From: Vampirovibrio chlorellavorus
Lineage (GTDB): Bacteria; Cyanobacteriota; Vampirovibrionia; Vampirovibrionales; Vampirovibrionaceae
Direction of reading: 5' to 3'
Length of the DNA: 64,000 nt
NCBI RefSeq assembly: GCF_003149375.1
Contig: NZ_QFWH01000001.1
Coordinates: 291,593-355,592 of the forward strand
This document shows, piece by piece, positions 41,430 to 50,764 of this stretch (positions are counted from its first letter, which is position 1; each line of letters starts with the position of its first letter). Below the pieces are notes generated by a model. It had not been told where the DNA came from. It saw only the letters and a list, made by a program, of their open reading frames with translations, and made no database searches. A program made the translations under genes and the position numbers.

Positions 41430-41510
41430 ACGTTACAGAGTACCTTTGACCTGATTGTATTATGAGGGCATCGTTTTATGCGACTGGGGTCAGGCGATTC
41501 ATACAAACGT

Positions 41511-41541
41511 AACGACCAAAACCCAGTAGGCTTTGGTCGTT
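41511..41541 (-). terminator. hairpin downstream of the Gly/Pro-rich gene
   Basis: 10-bp stem AACGACCAAA/TTTGGTCGTT with weak U-tracts on both strands. Confidence 0.4.
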
Positions 41542-41571
41542 ACCGTGTTTTGACGTATGGAGGCTGATGAT

Positions 41572-43401
41572 CTAGGCGGCCGGTCTGGCTTGCTGGCTCA
41601 TCAGCTTGGTGCCTGCGGCGATACCCGCACCCACGGCCATGGTTCCGGCCAGGAAGGGGCAAACGGCAGCGCCTGTGACCATTGCTCCGGCACCCACCGC
41701 GCTGATCACCGGGTGATCTTTCACGAAGCCGCCAAACTGTTGAATGGCTTGATTGGCGCTGAGTTGCAGGCTTTGCTGGATTTGTGCGGCGGTGCGACCA
41801 TTTTGCTGGGCACGCTGCACGGACTGGGCTTGAACTTGCTGTGCAGTGACACCGGGGGCACCCATGAAGATCTTGTCCAGAACTTTCTCGTTGGCCGCCC
41901 GCAAGGCATCCCCGTTCAACTGACCATCAATAGCCAGGTCATTCTGCAGCAGGGACAGTGTTTCAGGGTCGATATTGGTGTCCTGGTTTCCAAAGGAGCG
42001 TCCATCCAGTGAATTCGCGTTCCCCAGGGTAATGGCCAGAATATCGCCATCGACACTGCCGTCACCGCTGAACAGGGTAGCGTGACCTGCCAAACGGTAT
42101 ACGGCCTGCTCATACCGGCTTAGTCCCGATTGTTGTTCCAGGGTCCCAATATCACTGGTAATATTGAGTGGCTGGTTTATTTCCTGCAGCACGGCTTCCC
42201 GGTTGGGATTGTTGACCATTTTGGCCACTCGGGCGTCAATGGCCTGATGGTAAGCCTGTAGCTTTTCGGGCGAAATATCGCCGCGAGCTGCCATCTGATC
42301 CGCAAAGTCGTGATCCAGATTGGAGCCGGTGATCATCCCGTACCGGGCTTTTTCATCGGCGGCATACTGCTGAATCATGGTTACTTCATCCGGAGTAAAG
42401 TTGTTGGGGTTGTTCAATACGTTGCCATAAATCCGGGCCGAGCCAGACACGCCATTGGCGCTGGTGCCAGCGGAAATATGAGCGCGGCCACCCATGTGCA
42501 TGATGGCGGCATCACGTCCGGATACGCCATTGAAGGCTTGCTTGCCGCCCCGAACGTTGGCATAGTCAGCTCCACCATTGGGATTGGCTTTCAGGTCGCT
42601 GTAATTCAGGGCCCGACGCTGCTCAATGGTCATACTATCGGCAGAGCCAATGCCATTTGTTGGTGGAATCGTGCCTGGCGCACCAGCAGCACCTCCCGGA
42701 GGAACAGCGCCAGGAGCGCCAGCACCGGGAATATCGGCAGCTCCGCCGCCACCGGGACAGCCACGTTTTTTACCACCCGGGGGCACTACAGCACCACCCG
42801 GAGCGCCCGGCACATTGGGTGCTAGGCCACCATAACCACCACCGGCAGGAGGCGTCGCGCCACCATAACCTGGCGGTGTAGCCGGTGCGGGAGGCGTTGC
42901 GCCACCATAGCCCGGCGGTGTCACCGGTGCAGGAGACGTTGCGGCACCATAACCACCACCGGCAGGAGGGGGCGGGTCACCAGAGCCCGGCGGTGTCACC
43001 GGTGCAGGAGACGTTGCGCCAGCATAACCCGGAAGACCCGGAAGACTTGGAAGGGCAGGTAGGCTGCCGGTAATGGCAGCACCACCGGGTGCAGCAGCAC
43101 CTGAGCCCAGATCAGCGCCTGCCACTGCCTTTGTGGCATCGGCACCAACTGGGGCCTTTGAAGCATCGGCACTGCCTGTACCGGCCTGCGGTTGTTTGGA
43201 GCCCAGTTCCCTCTCAAGAAATGGCATTAATTGCACCAGGATTTGGACTATGGACATTATGTTGAACGAACTACCGGCAGCAGCACTGCTCACAGTAGAA
43301 GTGACATCCACTTGAGGAGCAAGAGATAAAGGGACACTGGCGGCCATTAAGGGCAGGCGGCCAGCCAAAGGTCTGGCTTGAAGGCTAAGGGGTTGCATCA
43401 T
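41572..43401 (-). CDS. large Gly/Pro-repeat secreted protein with a C-terminal glycine-zipper hydrophobic tail
   Basis: 609 aa. N-terminal hydrophobic leader. About 150 aa of GYGGAT(S/P)PAP(V/A)TPP 14-aa repeats. Then a roughly 330-aa domain with no family I recognise, and a C-terminal AVGAGAMVTGAAVCPFLAGTMAVGAGIAAG segment. Confidence 0.55.
   Translation of the reverse strand: MMQPLSLQARPLAGRLPLMAASVPLSLAPQVDVTSTVSSAAAGSSFNIMSIVQILVQLMPFLERELGSKQPQAGTGSADASKAPVGADATKAVAGADLGSGAAAPGGAAITGSLPALPSLPGLPGYAGATSPAPVTPPGSGDPPPPAGGGYGAATSPAPVTPPGYGGATPPAPATPPGYGGATPPAGGGYGGLAPNVPGAPGGAVVPPGGKKRGCPGGGGAADIPGAGAPGAVPPGGAAGAPGTIPPTNGIGSADSMTIEQRRALNYSDLKANPNGGADYANVRGGKQAFNGVSGRDAAIMHMGGRAHISAGTSANGVSGSARIYGNVLNNPNNFTPDEVTMIQQYAADEKARYGMITGSNLDHDFADQMAARGDISPEKLQAYHQAIDARVAKMVNNPNREAVLQEINQPLNITSDIGTLEQQSGLSRYEQAVYRLAGHATLFSGDGSVDGDILAITLGNANSLDGRSFGNQDTNIDPETLSLLQNDLAIDGQLNGDALRAANEKVLDKIFMGAPGVTAQQVQAQSVQRAQQNGRTAAQIQQSLQLSANQAIQQFGGFVKDHPVISAVGAGAMVTGAAVCPFLAGTMAVGAGIAAGTKLMSQQARPAA
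42859..43017. repeat. 42-bp tandem DNA repeats inside the Gly/Pro-rich gene
   Basis: Units gccaccata(a/g)cc(t/c)ggcggtgt(a/c)(g/a)ccggtgc(g/a)gga(g/g)(g/a)cgttgc repeated 3 to 4 times. They encode the 14-aa peptide repeat. Confidence 0.7.
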
Positions 43402-43559
43402 ATTGCTCGCGCTCTCTATTAAAATTCGTGCAAAAGGAAAACTGGAAATACAAAAAGAAAACTATCAAAATATACTCTCAATGTAATAAAAACAATCAAA
43501 TGAGCGTAATTGTGCCCTTCTGCCAGAAGATTAAGTTTTTTTAACATCCCCTACAACCG

Positions 43560-43588
43560 AAAAAAGGCCTAAAATGCGGTCTGGCCTT
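43560..43588 (-). terminator. terminator downstream of ORF 43629..43949
   Basis: Minus-strand hairpin AGGCC ... GGCCT followed by TTTTTT (plus: aaaaaaggcctaaaatgcggtctggcct). Confidence 0.6.
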
Positions 43589-43628
43589 ATATCTGGGAGT
43601 GTATGTATTTATATATAGGTGATGAGGC

Positions 43629-43949
43629 TTAGCGAACCCAAAACAGGGCCAGCATTTTCCAAACAGCCTTTAGTCCCGTAAACAAATAATGAATGGAAAA
43701 GCACAAGCCCACATGCCCGAAGCCTTCCCCCAAAATTTGGGCAGGCACAATGCCCGTTGTGATCAACCATTGACTCATGCCGGTTTGATCGATCAGATAG
43801 TGCCCTAACAAGGGAAACAGGGGCACAAATAAGAAACTTTTCAGGGCAATTTTGCTGTATCGGAAACTCAAGGCCACCCGACGAGAAGCATCAGAGGCCT
43901 CTGTTTCCTGGTTGGAAACGGTTAAAGAAAGCGATTTTGCATTAGCCAA
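43629..43949 (-). CDS. small membrane protein of unknown function
   Basis: 106 aa, two predicted TM helices. Lies directly downstream of fur on the same strand. Confidence 0.4.
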   Translation of the reverse strand: MANAKSLSLTVSNQETEASDASRRVALSFRYSKIALKSFLFVPLFPLLGHYLIDQTGMSQWLITTGIVPAQILGEGFGHVGLCFSIHYLFTGLKAVWKMLALFWVR

Positions 43950-43989: not shown

Positions 43990-44391
43990 TTAAGGGGTTT
44001 GCATACAACTGGCGCAGAGCCCAAACACTTCAAAATTGTGGTAATCCACCCGGAACTTGCCTTTCAGTTCACTGAGAACGGGCTGAAACGGGCAGCTGTC
44101 CAGCATCTGCACTTTTTCGCACCGGGTGCAAATCAGGTGGTGATGATGCATGTGCTGATTGTTCAATTCATAGCGCACCTGGCCATCATTAAAATTGAGC
44201 GGCTTAATGCGAGCCTCCGAGACCAGCTGGTTCAAGGCCCGGTATACACTGGTCAAACTGACTTTTTTGGCACCGGGGGCTCGATTGATCCAGTCCATGA
44301 CATCGGGTGCCGTGGCGTGGTTTAGCTGCTGAAGGGCTTCCAGCACAGCCTGAGTGGATTTGGCTGGACGATTGGAGGTGACTACGCTCAT
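43990..44391 (-). CDS. fur: Fur-family metalloregulator (Fur/Zur)
   Basis: 133 aa. DNA-binding helix region plus HHHLICTRCEKV ... C metal-site motifs. Confidence 0.8.
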   Translation of the reverse strand: MSVVTSNRPAKSTQAVLEALQQLNHATAPDVMDWINRAPGAKKVSLTSVYRALNQLVSEARIKPLNFNDGQVRYELNNQHMHHHHLICTRCEKVQMLDSCPFQPVLSELKGKFRVDYHNFEVFGLCASCMQTP

Positions 44392-44491
44392 GAAATGAAA
44401 ACCATTTTTATTTGTGGCCGAATGTTAGCATAAACATTCTGGACACGCTCGTGGATTTTATTCGTTTGACAAACCGGTGTCTCTACTTAAA

Positions 44492-44510
44492 AATGAAAAT
44501 CATTTTCATT
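44492..44510. promoter_or_regulatory. Fur-box-like 9-1-9 perfect palindrome between fur and the divergent operon
   Basis: AATGAAAATCATTTTCATT, which resembles the (GATAATGATAATCATTATC) Fur/Zur operator class. A second degenerate copy sits at 44395..44418 over the fur start. Confidence 0.5.
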
Positions 44511-44574: not shown

Positions 44575-45405
44575 ATGGTTACCTTCACGCCCGGCCTTAA
44601 CGGACTCTATCCAGCCACCGCTCTAAACCCGGGGCTTCCTTCCGCCTGGAAGCAGGCAACAGGTGTTTCTCCCCTGGCGGTATCCGCAATAGCGGGTGCA
44701 GGTCAGACTCCAAAGGCCCAGTCACCGGTCTTGAATGCCCATGTCAGCCATCAAAATTCGACCCTGCTGCATGTGGGTAAGGGCGCCGCTTTGATTACTG
44801 GCGCTCTTCTGCTAAAAAAATTGCCCGCACGGACGGTTTCCCATTTTCGGCTGTTTTCCACGGACTGGAAGGAGTGGGCCAAGGTGCTTCTGGCCATTGG
44901 CGGATTGGGAGAAGCTCAAAAGGCCATCCACTGGAAGCCCCCCGTTTGGCTCAGCGCCATGTTCAACGTGGCCGTGGTCACGCCGCTTGTTACCAAACTG
45001 AACCTGCAAAATGTTTTGCACGGGGTTATCCTCTCCCCTCTGGTGGGGGGATTGGCTGGGCTGAATCATTATCTGGGAGAAAAAGCGGAACAGCCCGCTC
45101 AGACATATCTGCATTTACCGGCCACCGCCACGCGCATTCTGCTATCGGCCCTGACCACCCTGACCGGTCTGGCGATCTTGCCCGCGGTGGGCAAAGCCAT
45201 TCCCCTGCCTGCCAAATCCTGGCCGGGCCAAAGTACAGCGCAAGCCACCGCGGCATCGGATACTGCGGCCCGGGCCGGAGCCGGTACCATTTGCGCCAAC
45301 GGGTGCTGTGCCAGCCTGATTTGCGCCAATGAGGCCGTGCAAATGGGCTCCGCCATGCTGGGTTCGCATCAGGCCCGTCAGCACGACAGAAAGACGCAGC
45401 CATGA
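44575..45405 (+). CDS. membrane-associated protein of unknown function with a Cys-rich C-terminus
   Basis: 276 aa. Hydrophobic segments. C-terminal ICANGCCASLICANEAV. First gene downstream of the Fur-like box. Confidence 0.4.
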   Translation: MVTFTPGLNGLYPATALNPGLPSAWKQATGVSPLAVSAIAGAGQTPKAQSPVLNAHVSHQNSTLLHVGKGAALITGALLLKKLPARTVSHFRLFSTDWKEWAKVLLAIGGLGEAQKAIHWKPPVWLSAMFNVAVVTPLVTKLNLQNVLHGVILSPLVGGLAGLNHYLGEKAEQPAQTYLHLPATATRILLSALTTLTGLAILPAVGKAIPLPAKSWPGQSTAQATAASDTAARAGAGTICANGCCASLICANEAVQMGSAMLGSHQARQHDRKTQP

Positions 45406-45799: not shown

Positions 45800-46231
45800 A
45801 TGATTTCCTCCATTGCTCACCGCCCGGTTTATACTCCCAATCCGCTTCGGACAGGAACTCCATCCCGATCCCTGCCCCAGAGCAGTGTGCGATTTGGGCA
45901 CGGCCCCGGGCACGTCCATGCCGATGGGCAGGCTTGCAGTGACAAGAACTGCACCGAAGGCCAAAAGGGAGAGCGTCAATCCCGTTTTCAGCAGTTTTTT
46001 GACTGGGTGAAAGCCACTTGGCAGAAGTTCAAGGACTTTTGCGCCAGCCTGTTTGGGCAATCGAAGCCGCAAGAGACCACCACGACTGCCGCAAGCACCC
46101 CCGCGGTCACGGCAACCCCTGCGCCTGCCGAGCAGCCAGCAACACAGACGTCGCATAAGCATGAGAGCCACACCGGCCATGATCACAAACACGGCCAATG
46201 CTGTGGCAAAAAACACAGCCACAGCCATTAA
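45800..46231 (+). CDS. His/Cys-rich putative metal-binding protein
   Basis: 143 aa. GHVHADGQACSDKNC segment and C-terminal HKHESHTGHDHKHGQCCGKKHSHSH tail. Third gene of the putatively Fur-controlled operon. Confidence 0.45.
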   Translation: MISSIAHRPVYTPNPLRTGTPSRSLPQSSVRFGHGPGHVHADGQACSDKNCTEGQKGERQSRFQQFFDWVKATWQKFKDFCASLFGQSKPQETTTTAASTPAVTATPAPAEQPATQTSHKHESHTGHDHKHGQCCGKKHSHSH

Positions 46232-46362: not shown

Positions 46363-47670
46363 CTATTCTACTTGCTCTGAAGAGGTTGCCTTCGCCTGAG
46401 TTGTTTTTGACTTGATACGCCCAATGCCTAGTTCATGAAAAAGCGGGATTTGTTGCTTATGGTTGATGATCCTATTCCTGACGTGATCACCCATCGGCAA
46501 TTCATGGGCCTGAGCCTTCCAAACATCCTCAAAGCGAGCGGCCATTTCTAGCGCCGTTTGGACCACAAGCCGAACGGGCAAGTCTGCCCTTTTGGCAAAA
46601 GCCTCGAATGAGGCCTGTGATATTTCCAGCATGTTTTTGGTTTTAGCCAGAGAAAGCCCCATCTCAGGTTCATTAATATAAGCGATAGTAGACACCAGAT
46701 CGTAGGCAGGAGAGAGCTTGGGATGGCGTCGATCGGGATATATTAAGGACCAATTCTTCAGGTGGGCATCCCCGTTCCCTATCGCAAGGTTAAAGACCAG
46801 CAAGCGCACGTATTCCAGTAAGGCTTCTTCTCCTGCTTCTAACCAAAGCAATTTCCCAATATTTTCATAGCTCACCTTTTTATACTTATCTCTGGGATAA
46901 ATGCCAAAAACCTGAGCCATATCTTCGATATGAATCCGCCGCTCATTGTCTCCCCGGTCAAATCGTTTAATGGCCAAAGACTGCCCAAAATCCTGAGCGT
47001 TCATGACCCCTTTTGGCAATCCCTCTATCTTGTCAGAGGCCACAAGCTTCACCTCTGGCACGATTAGCCCCATCGCTTTTGCCAATTGCATCATACTATA
47101 TTCATTCTCAGGAACACCGTTCCACTTCGCAGAAGGCAACTTGATGATCCAATGCCCACCCATCCCATTCACCGGAATGGTAAGGCCTCCCTGGGTTTCC
47201 TCAATCGCTGAGAACTTCATCTGAACCCCGGCCAATGAGAAGTGAAACACCTGCTTGGCCGGTTGATCACTCGGCACTACAGGCATTTCATCGGTTTGGG
47301 GCAAGTACATGGGCTGGGTTCTTGACTCCCGGACCGTTAAGGCGCCGGGCAAGTCGCTCCCTAACAACTTCAACAGGAAAAATTCCCGTTCCGGGTTAAT
47401 ATCTCCTTGTTTGGCCAGATACTCTCTCATGTGGCCTTCTGGCAGTAAGTTTGAAAAAAATGGGGGTAACTTGGTGCGAATCGGTCGCCTGTCTGGCAAC
47501 TTCAGACCCCCTAAAGAATTTTTAAACGAAAGGGATAGCGTGGGCCTTTCCGGATCACGCACATAACGTTCATCGAAAGCAAACAGGTTATTATCACCGG
47601 GCAGTCGCGTGAGATGCCCGATTAACTGCTCATACAAGAACACTTCAAGGATAGTGATTTCGGTCATCAC
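46363..47670 (-). CDS. hipA: HipA-family serine/threonine kinase toxin
   Basis: 435 aa. HipA N-terminal domain. C-terminal kinase core with GDAHLKNWSL catalytic motif. Confidence 0.85.
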   Translation of the reverse strand: MMTEITILEVFLYEQLIGHLTRLPGDNNLFAFDERYVRDPERPTLSLSFKNSLGGLKLPDRRPIRTKLPPFFSNLLPEGHMREYLAKQGDINPEREFFLLKLLGSDLPGALTVRESRTQPMYLPQTDEMPVVPSDQPAKQVFHFSLAGVQMKFSAIEETQGGLTIPVNGMGGHWIIKLPSAKWNGVPENEYSMMQLAKAMGLIVPEVKLVASDKIEGLPKGVMNAQDFGQSLAIKRFDRGDNERRIHIEDMAQVFGIYPRDKYKKVSYENIGKLLWLEAGEEALLEYVRLLVFNLAIGNGDAHLKNWSLIYPDRRHPKLSPAYDLVSTIAYINEPEMGLSLAKTKNMLEISQASFEAFAKRADLPVRLVVQTALEMAARFEDVWKAQAHELPMGDHVRNRIINHKQQIPLFHELGIGRIKSKTTQAKATSSEQVE

Positions 47671-47966
47671 TCAAGCTCCTCACTACTTTCTGAAAGCAGC
47701 ATCTCAGGAAGAGACTTTTCCTCTTGTCCTGATGAGGCAGGCATCATCAGGCTTTGGATGACAGGCGTTAGCTCTCTGGGAACAATGAGCAGATCTAGGC
47801 CCAAAAGGCGGGCCATATCGATCAGGCTGCTAAGCCTGAGATCCACCTCTCCTTTTTCAATTTTGGAGATATGGCTTTGCGGCATGCCTAGCTTTTGACC
47901 TAAAGCGGCCTGACTAAGACCGATGCGTTTTCTTGCTCGGCTCAGTATCTGTATCAACTCGTTCAT
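47667..47966 (-). CDS. hipB: HipB-like XRE-family HTH antitoxin
   Basis: HTH LSQAALGQKLGMPQSHISKIEKG. ATGA overlap with hipA. Start placed at MNELIQ (47966) so that the operator repeats lie upstream. Confidence 0.7.
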   Translation of the reverse strand: MNELIQILSRARKRIGLSQAALGQKLGMPQSHISKIEKGEVDLRLSSLIDMARLLGLDLLIVPRELTPVIQSLMMPASSGQEEKSLPEMLLSESSEELE

Positions 47967-47982
47967 GACTGGATTATATAGT

Positions 47983-48086
47983 ATGGCATATTTTTTATCA
48001 ATATTATATGCCATGCTATATAAACTGCCTGAATTGTTTTATACGCTATGACATATAAATATAAAAAATTATCTGCAATGGCATAT
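47983..48086. promoter_or_regulatory. candidate HipB operator array
   Basis: ATGGCATAT at 47983 and 48078. Inverted copy ATATGCCAT at 48006. Degenerate copy ATGACATAT at 48057. All sit in an AT-rich region upstream of hipB. Confidence 0.4.
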
Positions 48087-48729: not shown

Positions 48730-49086
48730 TTAAGAAGCATAAAGCATATTCTTGAGCTTGCGGTAAAAATTCTCGTGGGGGCCAATCAATAACACCACCA
48801 CACTGTCCGTTTCCGGAGATAACTGGTAGGCAATGCGGAACTCTTTGCCCTTGTAAGTGATGTGATGGGAAAAAACGGTGGTTAAAGGCTGAGACAAACG
48901 CTCACCCAGACGTTCCGGATTTTGACAAAGCCGTAATAAGGCATCTCGAATCAGGATTCGCAGCGGTTTGTCCAGATTTTTCTGGGCCTTATCCGCCGTC
49001 CGGGTTAAATAAAGCGTCCATTCACGCTCAGGTTGTATGCTTTCCGGGGGTAAGGCCGAGAAGCCATCGCTTAGCAAGGCGCTCAT
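48730..49086 (-). CDS. relE: RelE/ParE-family type II toxin
   Basis: Core LRILIRDALLRLCQNPERLGERLSQPLTTVFSHHITYKGKEFRIAYQLSPETDSVVVLLIGPHENFY is characteristic of RelE/StbE. It carries an N-terminal extension of about 25 aa. Confidence 0.7.
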   Translation of the reverse strand: MSALLSDGFSALPPESIQPEREWTLYLTRTADKAQKNLDKPLRILIRDALLRLCQNPERLGERLSQPLTTVFSHHITYKGKEFRIAYQLSPETDSVVVLLIGPHENFYRKLKNMLYAS

Positions 49087-49089
49087 GGT

Positions 49090-49299
49090 TTATAAATCCC
49101 CAAAAGCATCGCTCATCGATAATATTCGACCACTGCGCGAGTCGTCCAGACTGCTCAACAGCATGGAAATCTGCTCCACATCGGTCACAATCTCCAGGGT
49201 TTCCATCCGGGAGGCTCCCACGGCATCCACCGCGGCCGCCGCTACCGAGGAAAACCATGAATGACCATCTGCCTTGATATGTCCGTTGGATAAGGGCAT
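49090..49299 (-). CDS. candidate antitoxin partner of the RelE-like toxin
   Basis: ORF ends 3 nt before the toxin ATG. The C-terminus ...RILSMSDAFGDL resembles RelB/DinJ-type tails. The start is ambiguous: 49299 gives 69 aa, and the full ORF runs to 49521. Confidence 0.3.
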   Translation of the reverse strand: MPLSNGHIKADGHSWFSSVAAAAVDAVGASRMETLEIVTDVEQISMLLSSLDDSRSGRILSMSDAFGDL

Positions 49300-49572
49300 T
49301 GTAATTTCCCCACATTCAATCACGCATGCATTAAAACAAATTTTGTCATTTTGATGCCCCCTTCTCAGCCGATCAAAGTCGCTTTCAGGATTAAAAAACA
49401 AGGGGCGGTGGTACCTATCAGGAAGCACTCCTTCGGTCATCACCCTTAGGCCAGTGGGTGGTTTCGCTCCTGTAAATAGAGGAGATATGCCAGCGTAGCG
49501 CTCAAGTTTTGGCCACTCCACCCGATAGCGCTATCATACCCATCCGAACGGAAAGAGGAGCGAGCGCCCCTT

Positions 49573-50010
49573 ATGAATGCTGCCAACCCTTACGCCAGAC
49601 AGGCTGAGACCTACAAGAAGAATCAGATTGAAACGGCCACCCCGGAAGAAATCCTGATTATGCTCTATGAGGGGGCCATTCGGTTTTTGCTGGTCGCCAA
49701 AAAGGCCGATGAAGAAAAAAATCTGGAAAAATACAGTAAAAACATCATCAAGGCCCAGCACATCATCCAGGAATTCATGAACAGTCTGGATTTGGAAATC
49801 GGGGGCGAAATGGCCGTCAACCTGTACCGCCTGTACGACTACTTACACTACCGGCTGGTGCAAGGTAACATTAAAAGAGATATCGCCATGCTGGATGAAG
49901 TCATCGATCATCTCAGAAAACTGAAAGGGACCTGGGAAGAGGCCATTGTTATCGCCAAGCGGCAAAGGGAAGCGTTACCGGATGAACCCGAAACCACCGT
50001 GCAAGTATAA
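49573..50010 (+). CDS. fliS: flagellar export chaperone FliS
   Basis: NPY ... TATPEEILIMLYEGAIRFL ... IKAQHIIQEF ... LYDYLHYRLVQGNIKRD aligns along the whole FliS family. Confidence 0.85.
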   Translation: MNAANPYARQAETYKKNQIETATPEEILIMLYEGAIRFLLVAKKADEEKNLEKYSKNIIKAQHIIQEFMNSLDLEIGGEMAVNLYRLYDYLHYRLVQGNIKRDIAMLDEVIDHLRKLKGTWEEAIVIAKRQREALPDEPETTVQV

Positions 50011-50050
50011 CTTTGAAGAGGCCGACGGGCTATTGAATCAGCTGGAAATA

Positions 50051-50365
50051 ATGACTCAAACCATACTTCAGCATAGCATTGGAGACGATCTGCCCAGGCT
50101 CAACCAGTTAATTCTGGAGCGGGAGCGAATTATCGAGGCTTGCCAGGTCCTCGATACAGACGCCTTCACGCTGGCACAAAAAGCGCACCTTCGGGTCAGG
50201 CTGGAGTCCTGCCAGGCACTGGATCTGGAGATTGAGCAGAACATGAATGACTTTAAAACGCGTATGGGCCAACAGCTTCGGCATCTCAGGCAAAGTCAAA
50301 ATCTGCTTGGGAAGTACCAAAGTCCCGCAGGTAGCGGTCAGGAAACCCATAACGAGGACGCCTAG
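50051..50365 (+). CDS. small helical protein, possibly FliT/FlgN-like
   Basis: Follows fliS. About 105 aa from MTQTILQ. All-helical composition. Assignment rests on position only. Confidence 0.3.
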   Translation: MTQTILQHSIGDDLPRLNQLILERERIIEACQVLDTDAFTLAQKAHLRVRLESCQALDLEIEQNMNDFKTRMGQQLRHLRQSQNLLGKYQSPAGSGQETHNEDA

Positions 50366-50398
50366 CCATAAAAACGCCTTTTAAGGTACTATGGAAGC

Positions 50399-50764
50399 AT
50401 GGTATCGCTCATCCCGGTTCTTGTTGTAGAAGATGATCCCCACTGGCAAGAGGGGATTCAGGTTTTGCTGCAGCAAAGTGGTCGGTTTCAGGCCGTATCC
50501 ATTGTTGATCATTACGAAGACGCCCTGAGCGCATTTACGCAGTATCAGCCACAGCTGGTTCTGCTGGACTGGCAGATTATTGGAGAGAAAGACGGGCTGG
50601 ACGTCGGGCATAAACTGCTTCAGCTCGGCCTGGCCTCTCATCAAATCGTCCTGATTAGCGCGGCCAATCCGCAATCCATCCCCAGCCACCCGTTTCTGTA
50701 TATCCCTAAAAATCAAATCTCGGACCAACTTTTGCCCCTGCTGGACGCTTTATTTCCCGCGTAA
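50399..50764 (+). CDS. stand-alone CheY-like receiver domain protein
   Basis: VLVVEDDP ... LVLLDWQI ... receiver motifs. 121 aa. No output domain. Confidence 0.7.
   Translation: MVSLIPVLVVEDDPHWQEGIQVLLQQSGRFQAVSIVDHYEDALSAFTQYQPQLVLLDWQIIGEKDGLDVGHKLLQLGLASHQIVLISAANPQSIPSHPFLYIPKNQISDQLLPLLDALFPA

Follow-up and report, generated by a model that had tools for sequence, protein, structure and literature searches.

The window analysed here is a stretch of 64,000 nucleotides of Vampirovibrio chlorellavorus DNA (NCBI RefSeq assembly GCF_003149375.1, contig NZ_QFWH01000001.1, positions 291,593 to 355,592), and all coordinates given below are positions within it. Its minus strand carries, at 41572..43401 (stop codon at 41572..41574), a complete open reading frame (ORF) of 609 amino acids (aa), which an earlier inspection of the letters alone (the sequence-only reading) had singled out and which was recovered at that place. 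The product is built from five modules, namely an N-terminal segment, an amphipathic helix, a disordered linker, an all-alpha domain and a separable tail. It represents an undescribed family, for whose domain the libraries searched contain no relative, either in sequence or in fold. The whole protein has a pI of 5.57 and contains no Trp and two Cys, both of them within Cys-Pro dipeptides.

More than 10 relatives keep the long frame open, with indels that are all multiples of three, and dN/dS (Nei-Gojobori method, window against three strains) is below 1 for every segment of the ORF; the entire 609-aa ORF is therefore coding, and it is a real gene. The same N-terminus followed by an open frame is present at loci L001, L002, L003, L004, L007, L008, L009, L011 and L012, and the start MMQPLSLQ... 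is common to the long frames recovered from the DNA of relatives. Values of dN/dS are 0.05-0.06 in the domain, 0.10-0.20 in the tail, 0.19-0.31 in the linker and 0.51-0.62 in the first 70 residues; the N-terminal half evolves fast and the domain is strongly constrained. The initial database search returned 18 relatives, one of them named Vampirovibrio sp., several of which were just 353 aa long and started at Met257. Such 353-aa public gene calls exist for L001, L002, L004 and L013 and for P0001, P0002, P0003 and P0010, while P0018 has 478 aa. The 353-aa entries are gene-caller truncations, which arise because gene callers pass over the low-complexity, high-GC repeat region, and the annotations of V. 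chlorellavorus genomes under-report the 609-aa-type protein.

The N-terminal module (residues 1-44; 43270..43401, minus strand) starts with MMQPLSLQARPL, is polar and charge-poor, and is disordered in the AlphaFold2 model. In the N-terminal alignment MQP is nearly invariant, and the consensus MQPLSLQxRxL is retained in orthologues. Among the 68 family members with an N-terminal extension, the first 30 aa hold 2.6% D/E, 5% K/R and 52% S/T/N/Q/P/G. This module is followed by the Met/Gln/Leu-rich amphipathic helix SFNIMSIVQILVQLMPFLEREL (residues 45-66; 43204..43269, minus strand), which has Kyte-Doolittle windows of 1.2-1.5 and was modelled with low confidence as a helix at 49-66 in the full-length protein. 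An equivalent helix lies at ~45-65 in nearly all of the 68 members, with up to 12 Met per 20 residues, as exemplified by MMTQMMAMMQNMMAMMMQML in P0036. A role of this helix as a transmembrane signal-anchor was considered and ruled out, because the helix is too Gln-rich, as well as amphipathic, throughout the family. Signal peptides were judged from Kyte-Doolittle windows and by reading the sequence for a twin-arginine motif or a lipobox. Residues 16-28 are mildly hydrophobic in V. chlorellavorus strains (12-residue value of 1.5 in the near-identical P0007), whereas the same region is polar in orthologues of other species (maximum 12-residue value of 0.5-1.0), which contain no hydrophobic h-region; neither a twin-arginine motif nor a lipobox is readable in the N-terminal sequence. 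As judged by these features, the N-terminus is not a Sec, Tat or lipoprotein signal, and any secretion would therefore have to be non-classical. The hydrophobic leader and the signal described in the sequence-only reading are consequently not borne out, the hydrophobic element being the internal helix at ~45-66. A search with a profile of the N-terminal module against a database of 5.8 billion proteins gave no match and was uninformative.

The linker (residues 67-256; 42634..43203, minus strand; predicted local distance difference test, pLDDT, below 50) is Gly/Pro/Ala-rich and disordered, comprises about 186-190 aa with 25% G, 20% P and 20% A, and is hypervariable in length and sequence between lineages. 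Within it lies a 42-bp tandem array (42845..43032, minus strand), to which Tandem Repeats Finder assigned 4.7 copies with a score of 173, 69% matches and 11% indels. The array encodes in frame GY(G/A)GAT(S/P)PAP(V/A)TPP, and the units, read in register from 43029, are GYAGATSPAPVTPP, GSGDPPPPAGGGYG, AATSPAPVTPPGYG, GATPPAPATPPGYG and GATPPAGGGYGGLA, one unit being interrupted by GSGDPPPPAGG. The earlier description of 42-bp repeats that encode the 14-mers exactly thus holds for the in-frame repeats and not for the exactness, as the copies are imperfect. Nor do the 14-mers extend over some 150 aa, as had been stated: the array spans ~66 aa (residues ~125-192), and ~186 aa is the length of the whole linker. 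The repeat peptide was not found elsewhere in the window.

Variation of the repeats between strains, which had been predicted, was observed, and neither repeat number nor length is identical among relatives. Loci L001, L002 (V. chlorellavorus Vc_AZ_2) and L003 share identical 353-aa C-terminal parts (P0002), yet their long frames encode 621, 605 and 593 aa, respectively. Compared with L002 and L003, L001 has an extra 16-aa unit, PGYGGATPPATPVTPG, and a 12-aa unit, GLPGTGVPGGST, is present in L001 and L002 and missing from L003. The long frames of L004 and L005 encode 591 aa, L004 and L010 are one 14-aa unit apart, and the type strain NCIMB 11383 (L007) has 528 aa. In distant lineages unrelated repeats occupy the same place: GGGYGANTPPV in the type strain, GNAGNP hexamers in L011, KGHGKA in P0005 and GGTT in P0018. 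One homologue carries collagen-triple-helix repeats in its linker, as revealed by a Pfam scan of 52 relatives. The linker evolves by replication slippage of lineage-specific in-frame repeats, and its behaviour is that of a spacer prone to slippage, in which the sequence is of little importance. The two repeat arrays provide ready-made variable-number tandem-repeat (VNTR) markers for strain typing.

The all-alpha domain (~300 aa; residues 257-535; 41797..42633, minus strand) is the part of the protein that was modelled with confidence (pLDDT 81, predicted template modelling score 0.81). Alignment-based AlphaFold2 modelling of residues 257-609 gave 16 helices and no strands, with the last 50 residues unmodelled, whereas in the full-length model residues 1-250 are disordered save for the helix at 49-66. 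A subdomain A (~276-371, positions 20-115 of the hidden Markov model, HMM) and a subdomain B (~406-533, HMM 150-277) flank a variable insert. A deep HMM search of 1.84 billion representatives yielded 113 clusters, and over 52 diverse members the only invariant residues are H302, G305, E339, G359, G439, H440 and D488, while C581 and P582 are nearly invariant. The invariant set of two His, Glu and Asp is read as a putative ligand- or metal-binding or catalytic site. The domain has no Cys and no Trp, has a pI of 5.1, and is rich in Ala, Gly, Gln, Asn and Asp, and such a Cys-free composition is typical of secreted proteins.

The sequence-only reading had found no recognisable family for this domain, and the searches agree. 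No family was obtained with Pfam-A for the full protein at E<=1, nor with NCBIfam for the protein or its C-terminal ~350 aa, and no Pfam family recurs over the 52 relatives, two of which carry a separate extra EF-hand. A sequence-profile search of the PDB gave 0 matches at E<=10, Foldseek searches of the PDB and BFVD gave nothing better than E 0.76 and a TM-score of 0.28, and PHROGs and PADLOC gave no meaningful match and no toxin or defence family. A match to a housekeeping enzyme family, which would have spoken for a different kind of protein, was likewise absent from the C-terminal part. A haem peroxidase fold was rejected, as its best matches (TM-scores 0.22-0.28, E>4, root-mean-square deviation 12-16 A) are not significant, and so was an internal duplication of the domain (AAIMHxGGR... 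against AVYRLAGH...), for which hhalign of the two halves returned a probability of 0.1%. The loops GDGSVDGDIL and DLAIDGQLNGDAL are EF-like, but have Ala at a ligand position and a non-acidic position 12, and an EF-hand or dockerin assignment was discarded; there are no EF-hand Pfam matches inside the domain.

The C-terminal module (residues 536-609; 41575..41796, minus strand; HMM 280-350) combines a connector and a tail (...GR[ST]xxQI...QAxxD...K[DN]H[PA]...CP[FY]...) and is separable from the domain. The protein ends in ...HPVISAVGAGAMVTGAAVCPFLAGTMAVGAGIAAGTKLMSQQARPAA. A hydrophobic Gly/Ala small-residue zipper of ~36 residues (residues 563-598; 41608..41715, minus strand; 19-residue Kyte-Doolittle values >=1.6, up to 1.75) is predicted to form a helical hairpin and is split by Cys581-Pro582 (41656..41661, minus strand), the sole invariant residues over 30 diverse tails. 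In the AlphaFold2 model the tail forms helices at 564-577 and 582-601 with a break at Cys-Pro, at a pLDDT below 50. After the hydrophobic stretch come 11 polar residues that include K/R. The end of the protein had been described as GxxxG-rich and membrane-inserting; a hydrophobic Gly/Ala segment is indeed present, but it contains a single strict GxxxG (G593-G597), the other pairs being small-xxx-small combinations of Ala and Gly. Across tails the Cys-Pro site takes the forms CPF, CPY and CPC. The first Cys-Pro of the protein lies at residue ~211 (GKKRGCPGGGG) and the second at C581 (VCPF), and the neighbouring Fur-family protein also has an SCPF (...DSCPFQP...). A Cys-Pro followed by a hydrophobic residue is a haem-regulatory motif.

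The tail also occurs alone, behind a Q/N/P/M-rich region, in ~30 small proteins of 190-230 aa that form an unannotated family of their own, while some distant relatives with subdomains A and B have no tail. When a tail profile was run against the database of 5.8 billion proteins, all matches were further small tail-only proteins, with no annotated cargo among them; NCBIfam models compared with the tail and with five tail-only proteins (E<=10) gave no sorting domain. The metagenome-assembled genome (MAG) GCA_902168245.1 encodes both a full orthologue with subdomains A and B and the tail (L012) and a 226-aa tail-only paralogue, P0110 (L018, 6728..7408), which starts with MMINGFNPS....

Upstream of the gene lies an AT-rich intergenic region of 227 bp (43402..43628, minus strand), presumed to hold the promoter and 5' untranslated region (UTR). 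Its GC content is 35-42%, against 55-70% inside the gene, and is 35-40% in all 8 orthologous loci, in agreement with the ~230 AT-rich bp noted before. Two elements stand out in it. The first, TTGTTTTTAT (43495..43486, minus strand), is identical in 8 loci whose proteins go down to ~47% identity. The second, TAGAGAG[CT]GC (43418..43409, minus strand), ends 7 nt before the ATG, is invariant in the 8 loci and has its only exact copy in the window there; it is probably a ribosome-binding or translational control site. The upstream elements are not enriched in the rest of the window, and the idea of a regulon signature was dropped; both are read as candidate promoter or UTR control elements specific to this gene. 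A terminator-like hairpin with a 16-bp stem (41543..41509, minus strand) lies 29 nt after the stop codon, between the gene and hutH. With its own conserved promoter/UTR elements and terminator, the gene would therefore be under dedicated regulation. A known RNA or riboswitch in the 5' region was looked for in Rfam, with nothing at E<=1. Regulation of the gene by Fur was discarded, as no Fur box lies upstream (best match 10/19). A Fur-box-like palindrome, AAAAATGAAAATCATTTTC (~44489..44507), matches the consensus at 15/19 positions, a score reached by 0/300 shuffles; it lies between the Fur gene (43990..44391, minus strand) and a 276-aa ORF (44575..45405, plus strand), and overlaps divergent sigma70-like promoter matches. 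This arrangement suggests that Fur regulates its own gene and also that of the 276-aa multi-pass membrane protein.

In all Vampirovibrio loci the gene order is rpoB, L7/L12, L10, a CheY-like regulator, fliT, fliS, a ParE-like toxin pair, a membrane protein of 214-288 aa, the Fur-family gene, a membrane protein of ~106 aa, the 609-aa-type gene and hutH. In two other Melainabacteria lineages the gene lies directly upstream of hutH-hutU-hutI, behind a two-component system in L021 and behind msrA in L024. The stable junction is thus that with hutH, and it probably reflects collinearity, because the terminator separates both genes here. No paralogue was found in the window or in the loci of relatives examined, where the gene is single-copy, and the gene is a single-copy, syntenic core gene of the Vampirovibrionales. 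A scan of GTDB genomes found it in Vampirovibrio and Melainabacteria genomes only, and the deep search reaches MAGs labelled Vulcanimicrobiota and Myxococcales. Genomic context was rejected as a functional clue for distant relatives, whose contexts are heterogeneous, with one metal island in about nine independent contexts. That island surrounds P0128 (L017, 8001..9038), a short paralogue with domain and tail and almost no N-terminal extension; its neighbours are divergent CusA/CusB, YtkA, a CopA-type ATPase and DUF305, and a co-directional ArsP-type permease and multicopper oxidase.

Immediately upstream, in all Vampirovibrio loci, lies the gene for the conserved small membrane protein of 106 aa (43629..43949, minus strand), which has an invariant ILGEGFGHVGLCFS.HY motif (His-x3-Cys-x3-His) and no family match. 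With a gap of just 40 nt, co-transcription with Fur is probable. The gene is missing from the homologous positions of L021 and L024. The fliS and fliT genes lie ~5 kb from the gene in Vampirovibrio only and are unlinked in L021 and L024. In the window, the ParE-like toxin (48730..49086, minus strand) and its small upstream partner stand beside fliS (49573..50010, plus strand), followed by fliT (49946..50365, plus strand) and the CheY-like regulator (50399..50764, plus strand), with no adjacent fliD or flagellin gene. All Vampirovibrionales loci examined have kept this block (48730..50764). Inserted in the strain of the window, at 46363..48014 (minus strand), are genes for a HipA-like kinase toxin of 435 aa (...GNGDAHLKNWS...) and for an HTH/HipB-like antitoxin of 115 aa, both missing at the syntenic position in L001, L004 and L013-L016. 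Near the Fur gene, a 143-aa ORF (45800..46231, plus strand) with the His/Cys-rich tail HKHESHTGHDHKHGQCCGKKHSHSH may encode a metal-binding peptide.

From this material the protein is tentatively read as a Sec-independently exported, membrane-inserting envelope or surface protein that carries a head on a stalk. The Cys-Pro kink would turn the C-terminal ~36 residues into a helical hairpin, which would insert post-translationally into a bilayer, that of the cell's own envelope or possibly the membrane of the algal prey, and such hairpins could self-associate through the small-residue zipper. The linker would act as an extensible spacer or stalk, the alpha domain as a binding or catalytic head, and the charge-poor N-terminus together with the Met/Gln-rich helix as an export or chaperone-binding module for a non-Sec route. 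Candidate routes are the flagellar type III apparatus, by which signals at the N-terminus are recognised, or a type IV secretion system (T4SS); a flagellum, type IV pili and a T4SS are all known from the organism (PMC4451040). A location of the domain outside the cytoplasm is favoured by two remote homologues, P0093 and P0103, in which textbook lipoprotein signals (...FIVTSC and ...ISMAAC, respectively) directly precede the A/B domain and which are the best evidence for its working there, by the collagen-like linker of one homologue, and by the Cys-free, secreted-like composition.

Several points weigh against this reading. Most members, P0128 included, have no recognisable signal, which fits a cytoplasmic tail-anchored protein equally well. 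The profile of the N-terminal module found only orthologues among 4718 local ORF segments (~400 kb of related DNA). No secretion-system partner is consistent across the gene neighbourhoods, fliS and fliT are unlinked in L021 and L024, and the tail is modelled at the low pLDDT mentioned above. Finally, Pro/Gln-rich linkers exist in cytoplasmic proteins as well, such as ZipA and FtsK.

The main alternative, which the sequence-only reading had not taken into account and which is on the unlikely side, is a cytoplasm-facing, tail-anchored protein of the inner membrane, that is, a membrane-tethered scaffold or binding protein whose C-terminal hairpin would be inserted post-translationally while domain, linker and N-terminal helix stay in the cytoplasm. 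The lack of a Sec, Tat or lipoprotein signal would be expected of such a protein, and so would a single hydrophobic segment that stops 11 residues short of the C-terminus, with K/R after it; P0038 and P0128 are little more than domain and tail, and the gene is core, syntenic and housekeeping-like, with a domain dN/dS of ~0.06. The lipoprotein nature of two remote homologues nevertheless places their A/B domain outside the cytoplasm, and the collagen-like linker of one homologue and the secreted-like, Cys-free composition of the domain point the same way. The length of the Pro-rich stalk, moreover, varies between strains, and strain-level variation of this kind is more typical of exposed proteins.

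A secreted pore-forming or membrane-damaging predation effector of harpin-like character, as the sequence-only reading had proposed, is improbable. Here the zipper hairpin would oligomerise in the plasma membrane of Chlorella and cause a leak or pore, while the domain would bind a target of the prey. The protein has features that resemble those of harpins (Gly-rich, nearly Cys-free, no Trp, acidic, no Sec signal, a predicted C-terminal membrane-active helix), its host lives as an obligate predator on a green alga (PMC4451040), and glycine zippers drive membrane insertion and killing in Cdz toxins (PMC5380434) and in Tde1 (PMC10240207), an effector of a type VI secretion system (T6SS). However, no family of harpins, toxins or bacteriocins was matched by the protein or by 52 relatives, and the fold searches gave no match either. 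The gene does not lie in an island, and no set of secretion and immunity genes is conserved with it across lineages; a core, syntenic, single-copy gene with a domain dN/dS of ~0.06 is not an island-borne effector. Few parts of the locus are as conserved as the domain, which sets it apart from fast-evolving effectors, and some relatives come from MAGs with the labels Vulcanimicrobiota and Myxococcales, groups not known to prey on algae. An injectisome-type type III secretion system has not been reported for the organism (PMC4451040). Of the architecture on which the proposal was founded, the flexible linker, the unassignable globular domain and the predicted membrane-active Gly/Ala tail stand and the signal does not, and the resemblance to pore-forming or cell-surface effectors is one of architecture, with no family match by sequence or fold.

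Quite improbable, although it could be combined with either topology, is a function as an envelope protein that handles metal, probably copper. Metal would be bound by the Met-rich helix and the invariant His/His/Glu/Asp set, and the intramembrane Cys-Pro would act like a CPx motif; a Cys-Pro in mid-membrane presumably recalls that motif of heavy-metal P-type ATPases. His302, His440, Glu339, Asp488 and Cys581 vary little or not at all, Met is extremely abundant in the helices, and some tails have CPC. P0128 is located within the island of CusA/CusB, CopA, DUF305 and multicopper oxidase genes, Vampirovibrio orthologues always follow the Fur-family gene, P0051 follows msrA, and a homologue from Myxococcales lies ~4.5 kb from the Cu-binding protein MopE. 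Yet the metal island is 1 of ~9 independent contexts, the conserved junction is with hutH and not with metal genes, no metal-binding Pfam domain was matched, and the 15/19 Fur box belongs to the Fur/276-aa promoter and not to this gene, whose best upstream match is 10/19. The copper link is weakly supported.

A bolder version of the favoured reading, to which only a small chance is given, would have the protein found a family of Sec-independent, harpin-like membrane-active proteins, in which the N-terminal module would provide an export signal of a new kind, perhaps recognised by the flagellar type III apparatus, the CP-kinked hairpin would insert into the Chlorella membrane during predation, and the variable stalk would set its reach. 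Hardly credible at all is the view that the 353-aa C-terminal form annotated publicly is the sole product and that the repeat region is untranslated, for which the choice of Met257 by gene callers in P0001, P0002, P0003 and P0010 would speak, as the many indels, all multiples of three, leave the long frame open in every relative, the MQPLSLQ motif and the N-terminal helix are conserved to ~40% identity, dN/dS is 0.19-0.62 across the N-terminal and linker parts, and the conserved TAGAGAG[CT]GC precedes the upstream ATG and not Met257.

No predator other than Vampirovibrio is known in the cyanobacterial lineage, and how Vampirovibrio attacks has so far been inferred from genome annotation only (T4SS and hydrolases). 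It is a pest of commercial Chlorella ponds. A role of the protein as a cell-surface or predation factor is plausible but unproven, and its interest lies in the combination of an orphan domain family with a candidate envelope or predation factor of an unusual predator. If exported and membrane-active, it would be a testable candidate for the interface of attachment or attack, possibly with a new export signal. Should the harpin-like reading be true, Vampirovibrio would have its first candidate for a contact or predation factor whose architecture is defined, and if the protein is tail-anchored or handles metal instead, it still stands for a new domain family (about 113 clusters at 50% identity). 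The N-terminal leader with its helix and the CP-hairpin tail, two reusable modules, are also found on a set of small unannotated proteins.

Among known systems, the harpins offer a partial parallel in composition. Harpins are Gly-rich, Cys-free, aromatic-poor and acidic, and have no Sec signal and a membrane-active C-terminal helix (PMC12854069); in partial resemblance to HrpZ, HrpN and Hpa1, the 609-aa protein is Gly-rich (25% Gly in the linker), almost Cys-free, aromatic-poor, acidic and without a Sec signal, its C-terminal helix is predicted here to be membrane-active, and its producer attacks a plant-type (green algal) cell. Unlike harpins, it has a large folded and conserved alpha domain, a true hydrophobic hairpin and two Cys, and no harpin profile matches the full protein (Pfam-A, E<=1) or the 52 relatives. 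The N-terminus of HrpZ (MQSLSLNSSSL...) and the Met-rich stretches of HrpN presumably resemble the start MQPLSLQNRSL... and the Met-rich helix, respectively. In another difference from harpins, no Hrp injectisome is known in the host; its genome paper describes a T4SS, type IV pili and a flagellum and mentions no injectisome (PMC4451040). With CdzC/CdzD from Caulobacter and with Tde1 the protein shares a hydrophobic small-xxx-small zipper that could drive insertion or oligomerisation, and the small conserved membrane protein next door in Vampirovibrio formally resembles an immunity gene, although it is missing in other lineages. Cdz toxins, however, are of 5-10 kDa and have an RTX-like leader and their own type I secretion genes adjacent (PMC5380434), whereas this protein has 609 aa and one strict GxxxG and is encoded by a core gene and not an island gene; ABC or membrane fusion protein genes were found within +/-10 kb of the gene in none of the loci.

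From the side of membrane attachment, the protein resembles tail-anchored proteins, as an N-terminal signal is missing and the only hydrophobic segment lies in the last ~50 residues, with basic residues after it. Bacterial examples are ElaB/YqjD and Flk, from which it differs by a ~36-residue element with a central invariant Cys-Pro (a predicted hairpin), by its lipoprotein remote homologues and by the lack of any sequence relationship. Short Cys/Pro motifs with a C-terminal hydrophobic stretch and few basic residues are also reminiscent of the sorting signals PEP-CTERM, GlyGly-CTERM, MYXO-CTERM and LPXTG, but here the CP lies in the middle of the stretch and not before it, no NCBIfam sorting model matches, and no sortase-like partner is located nearby. 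As for the linker, a long, Pro-rich and probably extended segment between a membrane element and a globular domain is comparable to the spacers of TonB and TolA, and its gain and loss of in-frame repeats between strains to the linkers of surface proteins with variable-number tandem repeats; unlike TonB and TolA, this protein has its anchor at the C-terminus, its amphipathic N-terminal helix does not serve as a transmembrane anchor, and a TonB_C or TolA domain is missing. The global picture is that, although it belongs to no described family, the protein would work like a stalked, hairpin-anchored protein.

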